Assembly (NCBI RefSeq): GCF_003334405.1 | Contig: NZ_QOWM01000005.1 | Origin: Escherichia coli | Lineage (GTDB): Bacteria > Pseudomonadota > Gammaproteobacteria > Enterobacterales > Enterobacteriaceae | Reading direction: 5' to 3' (one strand) | Length of the DNA stretch: 64,000 nucleotides | Shown here: in pieces, positions 59,182 through 59,670 of the stretch | Layout: each line of letters begins with the position of its first letter | How positions within the stretch are numbered: the stretch's first letter is position 1 | Position numbers and translations under genes: made by a program | Notes under the pieces: generated by a model | Told to the model about the DNA's origin: nothing | Database searches by the model: none | What the model saw: the letters and a program-made list of their open reading frames with translations, nothing else

Positions 59182-59670
59182 AGGCCTGATAAGACGCGGC
59201 AAGCGTCGCATCAGGCATTGATGTCGGATGCGGCGTAAACGCCTTATCCGACCTACAAAATCACGCTAAATCAGGCTATTGCGCTGTCTGGCGTAGGCCT
59301 GATAAGACGCGTTAAGCGTCGCATCAGGCGTTGATGTCGGATGCGGCATAAACGCCTTATCCGACCTACAAAATCACGCTAAATCAGGCTATTGCGCTGT
59401 CTGGCGTAGGCCTGATAAGACGCGGCAAGCGTCGCATCAGGCGTTGATGTCGGATGCGGCGTAAACGCCTTATCCGACCTACAAAATCACGCTAAATCAG
59501 GCTATTGCGCTGTCTGGCGTAGGCCTGATAAGACGCGTTAAGCGTCGCATCAGGCGTTGATGTCGGATGCGGCATAAACGCCTTATCCGACCTACAAAAT
59601 CACGCTAAATCAGGCTATTGCGCTGTCTGGCGTAGGCCTGATAAGACGCGGCAAGCGTCGCATCAGGCAT
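59182..59670. repeat. Tandem BIME/REP array: about 4.3 units of 113 bp alternating two sequence variants (226-bp higher-order period)
   Basis: aggcctgataagacgcg(gc/tt)aagcgtcgcatcaggc...gatgtcggatgcggc(g/a)taaacgccttatccgacctacaaaatcacgctaaatcaggctattgcgctgtctggcgt repeats starting at 59182, 59295, 59408, 59521 and 59634. Confidence 0.9.

Follow-up and report, generated by a model that had tools for sequence, protein, structure and literature searches.

The near-identical repeats between the convergent genes yjcO and gltP of Escherichia coli raise the question of what unit this array is built from, and by what steps it lengthens and shortens. The locus was analyzed in a stretch of 64,000 nucleotides from one E. 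coli assembly (GCF_003334405.1, contig NZ_QOWM01000005.1), hereafter called the window. A first-pass annotation had described a BIME array with alternating variants of a 113-bp unit, and had read it as really a 226-bp dimer that expanded by duplication of a two-unit block rather than of single units. The class and the gene context named there, a BIME array between yjcO and gltP, both hold. yjcO, encoding a Sel1-repeat protein, lies upstream on the + strand (58489..59178, stop codon at 59176-59178), and gltP, encoding the glutamate/aspartate:H+ symporter, converges on it from the other side on the - strand (59709..61022, stop codon at 59709-59711). The array occupies the 530-bp gap between these stop codons. 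Its first Y stem stands 5 nt past the yjcO stop, and on the gltP side it is bounded by a GC-rich hairpin outside the repeat (59681..59703, - strand, -18.1 kcal/mol, z = -3.3, no U-run), which begins 5 nt past the gltP stop. A promoter and terminator scan found no intrinsic terminator in the array or at the gltP-side hairpin, and a canonical-terminator role for the array was ruled out on this basis.

In each 113-bp unit, an inverted Y REP is separated by a head-to-head linker of 6 nt from a Z2 REP, which is followed by a tail-to-tail linker of 43 nt. By folding and Rfam alignment, the Y REP hairpin of unit 1 was placed at 59184..59216 (- strand in canonical REP orientation), with copies at +113, +226, +339 and +452, and the Z2 REP hairpin at 59223..59252 (+ strand), with copies at +113, +226 and +339. 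Single units fold into two strong hairpins on both strands, with z from -4.1 to -5.7. An inverted-repeat finder with a 9-nt seed found nothing inside the array; such a finder is blind to it because the REP stems are interrupted, and folding and Rfam were used instead. The palindromes are imperfect, about 30-40 nt long, and have the conserved GTAG/CTAC foot of REP elements, the tetranucleotide being kept in both REPs, with TAGGCC... marking the tail of Y and ...GACCTAC that of Z2. Y and Z2 alternate in orientation across the short head-to-head linker, the whole is extragenic and lies 3' of genes, between the yjcO and gltP stop codons, and it occurs in multiple tandem copies whose number differs among strains (0-9 full units in 5,426 genomes).

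In these respects the array resembles the BIME-2 and atypical BIMEs of Gilson, Bachellier and Hofnung (PMC3333891), in which Y and Z2 likewise alternate around a short head-to-head linker in tandem copies that are well conserved within a locus and vary in number by strain. It differs from BIME-2 in its long tail-to-tail linker (59257..59293, + strand, with further copies starting at 59370, 59483 and 59596), which is locus-specific and has a weak hairpin of its own. As far as could be judged, this 43-nt linker resembles none of the short s, l or r motifs, and the array may belong either to BIME-2 or to the "atypical BIMEs". Binding and cleavage by DNA gyrase are a further hallmark of BIME-2 elements. 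Every linker contains AATCAGGCTATTG, a perfect match, in sequence only, to the IHF core consensus WATCARNNNNTTR; the consensus scan placed these matches on the + strand at 59269-59281, 59382-59394, 59495-59507 and 59608-59620. Eight matches to the consensus occur in the window against 4.1 expected, and the four among them that are array linkers count as one independent occurrence. B2-type units have ACATCAGG in place of AATCAGGCTATTG, and the IHF-like match is not conserved there. The IHF-binding class of BIME-1 (RIP or RIB elements) was considered and rejected: a Y and a Z1 REP with a long head-to-head L motif would be expected, whereas the head-to-head linker is 6 nt here, and the WATCARNNNNTTR match sits tail-to-tail rather than head-to-head and is lost in B2-type units.

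The Rfam family naRNA4 (RF02564, gathering score 59.5) models one Z2-linker-Y pair of the REP325 BIME-2. All four pairs of the array exceed the gathering threshold on the - strand, the first, comprising Z2, head-to-head linker and Y, at 59183..59253 (79 bits) and the others at 59296-59366 (71.4 bits), 59409-59479 (77.1 bits) and 59522-59592 (71.4 bits). The + strand of the array scored 43-49 bits, under the threshold of 59.5. RNA reading through from gltP would have the naRNA4-like Z2-to-Y order. In the alignment to RF02564 both stems are intact, with a compensatory C-G to U-A change in the Z2 stem, a central linker 7 nt shorter than that of REP325 and a Y loop 1 nt longer. Elsewhere in the window, the Rfam search returned an isolated naRNA4-type REP pair (32285-32365, - strand, 69.1 bits), a full-length match to the sRNA STnc630 (23602-23767, - strand, 181.8 bits) and a SECIS_2 match (56660-56714, + strand, 87.1 bits) just upstream of a 559-aa ORF at 56716-58395. 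The last corresponds to the element that directs selenocysteine insertion in fdhF; as the UGA of this gene is a selenocysteine codon, the ORF finder lists no more than the stretch downstream of it.

REP325 itself, the naRNA4 locus between yjdM and yjdN (Qian et al. 2015, PMC4550694), offers the closest comparison within the same window. Both loci consist of tandem Z2 and Y pairs with a constant spacer in a 3' intergenic position, both score above the naRNA4 gathering threshold, and at both the copy number differs among K-12-like strains. naRNA4 itself is defined as a transcript that is processed to about 77 nt and bound by HU. The period is 100 bp in REP325 and 113 bp here, the head-to-head linker 13 nt against 6 nt, and the spacer 23 nt against 43 nt with a weak hairpin; the Z2 U-A pair is particular to the present array, the naRNA4 scores are 95-111 bits there and 71-79 bits here, and the genes are in tandem there and converging here. 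In the window REP325 lies at 29430-29809 (+ strand) as four 100-bp units (r1, r2, r2, r6), and in the MG1655 reference it has six (r1, r2, r3, r2, r5, r6). One simple deletion cannot easily account for this 200-bp difference between K-12-like strains.

Tandem Repeats Finder recovered a single array at 59181-59668 with a period of 113, 4.3 copies and 96% matches, in agreement with the unit length first described. Cut at 59181, the window array (59181..59671) comprises four complete units of 113 nt followed by 39 bp of a fifth, which stays in register up to column 39 (59671), in the order A', B, A*, B, a. Unit 1 (59181..59293, type A') has the Y loop GGCAA, A at column 37 and G at column 55. Units 2 (59294..59406) and 4 (59520..59632), both of type B, have the loop GTTAA, G at column 37 and A at column 55, and are the same over all 113 nt. 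Unit 3 (59407..59519, type A*) has GGCAA with G at both columns 37 and 55, which makes it unlike unit 1 at one site. The terminal partial unit (59633..59671) is a lone Y REP with the loop GGCAA and A at column 37.

Only columns 19, 20, 37 and 55 vary within the window array. Columns 19-20 read GC/TT/GC/TT/GC in units 1-5, and column 55, for which unit 5 is too short, reads G/A/G/A in units 1-4. The unit alignment thus bears out the alternation that had been claimed, A, B, A, B, (A), at columns 19, 20 and 55. The pairs of markers assigned to units 1, 3 and 5 stand in part, as unit 5 is a Y REP alone and has gcggcaag but lacks gcggcgtaaacg. Column 37, which the first-pass annotation overlooked, reads A/G/G/G/A. 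The 226-bp periodicity is also present in this allele, with 261/262 identities at lag 226 against 363/375 at lag 113, and the exact block at lag 226 extends over 225 bp, delimited at both ends by column 37. By counting, strict alternation is one of 10 possible orders for three A-type and two B-type Y loops and two of 6 for the four full units; taken from the window alone, the alternating order is statistically weak. The tandem array itself exceeds chance by far: the 37-nt linker occurs 4 times in the window sequence and 0 times in 100 shuffles.

The differences between A and B units look neutral, judging from the confinement of the changes to one hairpin loop and one apical pair. Columns 19-20 fall inside the 5-nt loop of the Y REP, and column 55 is the apical base pair of the Z2 hairpin, which is missing in B units; the fold of the unit goes from -51.0 to -49.4 kcal/mol. 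The B-type changes cost 1.6 kcal/mol in folding and about 6-8 bits in Rfam score. Their neutral appearance agrees with the published observation that REPs vary mostly within their loops and bubbles (bioRxiv 10.64898/2026.03.23.713779).

The distribution of the repeat was surveyed in 5,426 genomes with a 52-nt query containing linker only. The linker was present in 2,809 of them, at 1-9 copies per genome with a median of 4, and 9,696 of the 9,702 linker sites were chromosomal. Across the 5,426 genomes full units numbered from 0 to 9, and alleles with 1, 2, 3, 4, 5, 6, 7 and 9 are known. No full unit, only a single Y REP (allele "a"), was found in 48% of the genomes, which makes full units dispensable; the lone Y REP that ends the window array is the sole element remaining in this 0-unit allele. 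In two systematic samples of 60 out of 5,438 records, intergenic spans differed by multiples of 113 bp. The array was shown to be a variable-number tandem repeat, and its linker and unit are restricted to the yjcO-gltP locus. A doublet mobilized in the manner of REPINs by a RAYT was rejected as a description, since dispersed copies would be expected; the linker is found at one locus only, and elsewhere generic REP arms alone match. A CRISPR-like or mobile-element reading was likewise rejected, there being no unique spacers and no dispersal of the unit. The array shares with the bacterial VNTR loci generally used in MLVA an intergenic tandem repeat, a range of 0-9 copies and changes even between laboratory sublines, and differs from them in having a unit made of REP hairpins. 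A literature search found no MLVA scheme that uses the yjcO-gltP array. With its 0-9 units the locus would also lend itself to inexpensive strain typing.

Scanning species representatives for exact patterns showed that E. whittamii and Escherichia sp. E1V33 also have the array at this locus, which indicates that it predates E. coli. Escherichia sp. E1V33 has five units, the last linker being fused directly to ...ATTCACAC, and in E. whittamii the array opens with a Z2 REP directly after yjcO. A 240-bp contig in an assembly of Pyxidicoccus caerfyrddinensis (NZ_JAAIYA010000177.1, coverage 0.53) consists of two adjacent B units and nothing else, and almost certainly derives from contaminating E. 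coli DNA of the MG1655 or BL21 type.

About 30 alleles were read individually as strings of units, and the comparison of strains rests on these. The window, W3110 and BW25113 have A' B A* B a, and the 530-bp intergenic region of the window is identical in W3110, BW25113 and a K-12 MG1655 derivative. Over the 12 kb from 51093 to 63093, 3 differing positions separate the window from W3110, the array being identical. PA11 has A' B A* B c, A23 and Res13 have A' B c, INSC1002 and FDAARGOS_1250 have A' B B c, as do BL21-type strains, and strain 8600 has A' b. Strain 9A has A' B B A* B a; the MG1655 reference (NC_000913.3 4295795-4296435, corresponding to 59179-59708 of the window) has the same string with a 2-bp gap in unit 1. 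In the B2-type arrays the first element is a truncated Y and the last a full unit. The arrays range from one unit in S88 and four in ST131-like strains to i j e g h in 23AR1217, a b c d e g h in Nissle (CP022686, ESM1.4) and a b c d e d e g h in CFT073 (NC_004431.1, CP058222.1). These arrays alternate at another column than the window, the linker reading TTGCGC or TTACGC, and units d and e of Nissle and CFT073 differ by one linker base. Column 37 of unit 1 is A in nearly all alleles, B2-type included. Units resembling A* also occur in B2 arrays (units 13, 18 and 24), with the same Y and Z2 markers and with linkers that differ at 1-3 sites.

Differences of two units were found in two settings. 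A23 and Res13 (A-B-c) differ from PA11 (A-B-A-B-c) by two units with shared flanks and terminal Y, and CFT073 equals Nissle plus exactly one d-e block, each of these alleles being present in independent assemblies. Differences of one unit are just as evident. A-B-B-c occurs in BL21-type strains and FDAARGOS_1250, and MG1655 (A-B-B-A-B-a) differs by one unit from W3110 and BW25113 (A-B-A-B-a), from which it follows that a one-unit change took place among K-12 sublines. A 226-nt query for B-B adjacency gave matches of 100% identity in wild isolates as well as in MG1655 stocks and the BL21/B family; its band of at least 99% identity holds at most 784 records, such BLAST identity bands being upper bounds only. 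Identity at a lag of two units exceeds that at one unit in the window and in CFT073, and MG1655 and BL21 carry B-B neighbors. The idea that the array is really a 226-bp dimer is not supported by these neighbors, nor by the existence of both odd and even unit numbers. Of the proposed expansion, the two-unit steps do occur, and the clause that set them in place of single units is not supported; array length compared between strains varies by one unit as well as by two. The array is better described as a repeat of 113 bp whose copies probably misalign in several registers, with a two-unit event as the likely source of the window allele. Periodicity at the level of the dimer and the set of one- and two-unit alleles are small descriptive additions to what is otherwise already known.

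Taken together, we consider it probable that the locus is a BIME-2-type REP cluster, VNTR-like in behavior, that changes length in register by one and by two units and serves as a 3'-UTR hairpin block for yjcO and gltP. Sister copies would misalign in register and change length by replication slippage or by RecA-dependent unequal exchange, with offsets of one unit and of two units both in use. The crossover zone is likely a 76-nt stretch that is the same in all units of the window allele and is made up of columns 56-113 of one unit and columns 1-18 of the following one; its length should amply allow slippage or RecA-mediated unequal exchange. All junctions that were read are perfectly in register and contain no new sequence. 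The window allele, A'-B-A*-B-a, would have arisen by an event in the two-unit register on an A-B background, and would need, besides, an A* unit of older date or one more change at column 37. The window sequence is not obtained by simply duplicating units 1-2, since unit 3 differs at column 37, and an extra substitution or a short conversion tract is required. Rejection by mismatch repair of the one-unit register, which is 2.7% diverged, may bias exchange toward the 226-bp register. The basis for this argument on diverged repeats is reportedly to be found in work by Lovett and Feschenko from 1996. Such rejection cannot be the main cause of the step between CFT073 and Nissle, where the neighbors d and e differ by only 1 nt.

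The enhanced identity at two units invites comparison with eukaryotic satellites. In higher-order repeats such as those of alpha-satellite, unequal exchange over several units raises identity at multiples of the basic period. The likeness lies in an identity that is greater at a multiple of the period than between neighbors; the difference is that there are only 2 to 2.5 dimer copies here, and that the pattern varies within the species, MG1655 and BL21 both departing from it. In a wider reading, BIME-2 arrays might change preferentially in two-BIME steps and so form true bacterial higher-order repeats, in which case the 0-9 naRNA4-like pairs in the gltP 3' UTR would tune expression or the binding of HU or IHF. 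This preference is suggested by A-B against A-B-A-B, by d-e against d-e-d-e in ST73, and by the four and six REP325 units of the window and MG1655, and it might be caused by mismatch-repair rejection of the one-unit register or by a protein footprint over two units. We regard this wider reading as quite unlikely.

It might instead be supposed that no dimer event took place, and that the order A, B, A, B arose by chance from one-unit slippage combined with short gene-conversion tracts. There are just four full units, strict alternation would arise by chance with a probability of 0.1-0.33, one-unit steps are common, unit 3 is no copy of unit 1 at column 37, and A*-like units are old enough to be found in B2-type arrays. 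An A-type unit at position 3, however, demands a transfer over 226 bp, and units 2 and 4 are identical across 113 nt. Furthermore, A-B-c and A-B-A-B-c share a terminal haplotype, and the pattern repeats exactly in ST73 with d-e and d-e-d-e. Such an origin by chance therefore seems unlikely.

A second explanation assigns the amplification to the REP transposase RayT (TnpA_REP), which would cleave in the linker and then either transfer strands or copy an excised two-BIME circle by rolling circle. Models of this type were proposed by Ton-Hoang 2012 (PMC3333891), where a partial BIME of the yjcO-gltP locus served as the substrate B319 and was cleaved in vitro by TnpA_REP at four linker sites (PMC3333891). 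rayT is present in K-12, and the GTAG/CTAC tetranucleotide is kept in both REPs. On the other hand, the junctions are all in register without new sequence, and the unit and its linker never occur elsewhere in the genome, so that there is no sign of mobilization. Nissle and CFT073 also differ by an exact two-unit step, and tnpA_REP is cited as precisely excised in CFT073 (Ton-Hoang 2012, PMC3333891). With this step taken in a lineage without tnpA_REP, and with rayT absent from 1,851 of the 5,426 genomes, a RAYT is not required for length change. Amplification by RayT is accordingly held to be distinctly improbable, and RAYT may have a minor role in K-12.

Selection might also keep two unit types in turn, for example for paired protein binding or to damp recombination, and the independent alternation at the linker TTGCGC/TTACGC in B2-type arrays would suit such a function. 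Given that the variant sites amount to one hairpin loop and one apical pair, that B-B neighbors occur in MG1655 and the BL21 family, and that 48% of genomes are without a full unit, functional alternation is highly improbable. An assembly artifact, the repeat being longer than sequencing reads, can hardly be the explanation: the Nissle record CP007799.1 has a unit with a 4-bp insertion seen in no other record, and the MG1655 reference has a 2-bp gap missing from laboratory stocks, but the same 530-bp allele recurs in W3110, BW25113, a K-12 MG1655 derivative and many unrelated assemblies. The Nissle record in question (NZ_CP007799.1, the old 5.44-Mb assembly of Nissle 1917) shows 9 units, one of them with the insertion, and all other Nissle assemblies show 7. 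Its 9-unit allele is likely an assembly error; it was dropped as the 9-unit example for the sake of that singular unit, and the comparison of CFT073 with Nissle CP022686 was used instead.

The near-identity of the units also has a practical side in MG1655. Compared with the window, W3110 and BW25113, the MG1655 reference has an extra B unit and, within the Z2 REP of unit 1, a gap of 2 bp that laboratory MG1655 stocks do not have. Papers on MG1655 resequencing recurrently list the gltP/yjcO calls "+CG at 4,296,380" (at 100%) and "C->T at 4,296,060" (at about 0.33). The former maps to the 2-bp gap in reference unit 1, and the latter to column 37 of the A* unit. The C->T call is probably a read-mapping artifact; it would be expected if true unit 1 reads, with A at column 37, map to A* owing to the damage in unit 1 of the reference. 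Low-frequency calls in the gltP/yjcO intergenic region have been discussed as possibly advantageous in a 2026 paper that gives no coordinates. The near-identity of the units, together with the gap in the reference, probably explains the recurrent spurious "gltP/yjcO mutations" in breseq-type studies of MG1655, and the practical value of this exceeds its biological interest.

As to function, the stacked hairpins would, by analogy with the REP family, act on RNA, protecting 3' ends and forming partial termination blocks for both converging transcripts, and a 3'-UTR hairpin block for yjcO and gltP is the likely role. The presence of REPs between two convergent genes goes along with higher expression of the pair, and such REPs serve as terminators, in part, and as blocks to 3' decay (bioRxiv 10.64898/2026.03.23.713779). 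A 2026 preprint describes no measurable effect of REP325 on chromosome organization. The hairpin 5 nt past the yjcO stop codon is a candidate for an effect of stop-proximal REPs. REPs so placed are said, by Liang, Rudd and Deutscher in 2015, to cause ribosome stalling.

The yjcO-gltP array offers a clear natural example of tandem BIMEs that change, probably through unequal exchange in register and at offsets of one as well as two units, even among laboratory sublines of K-12. The change in a lineage that is without the REP transposase bears on the question of whether RAYT proteins or host recombination amplify BIMEs.
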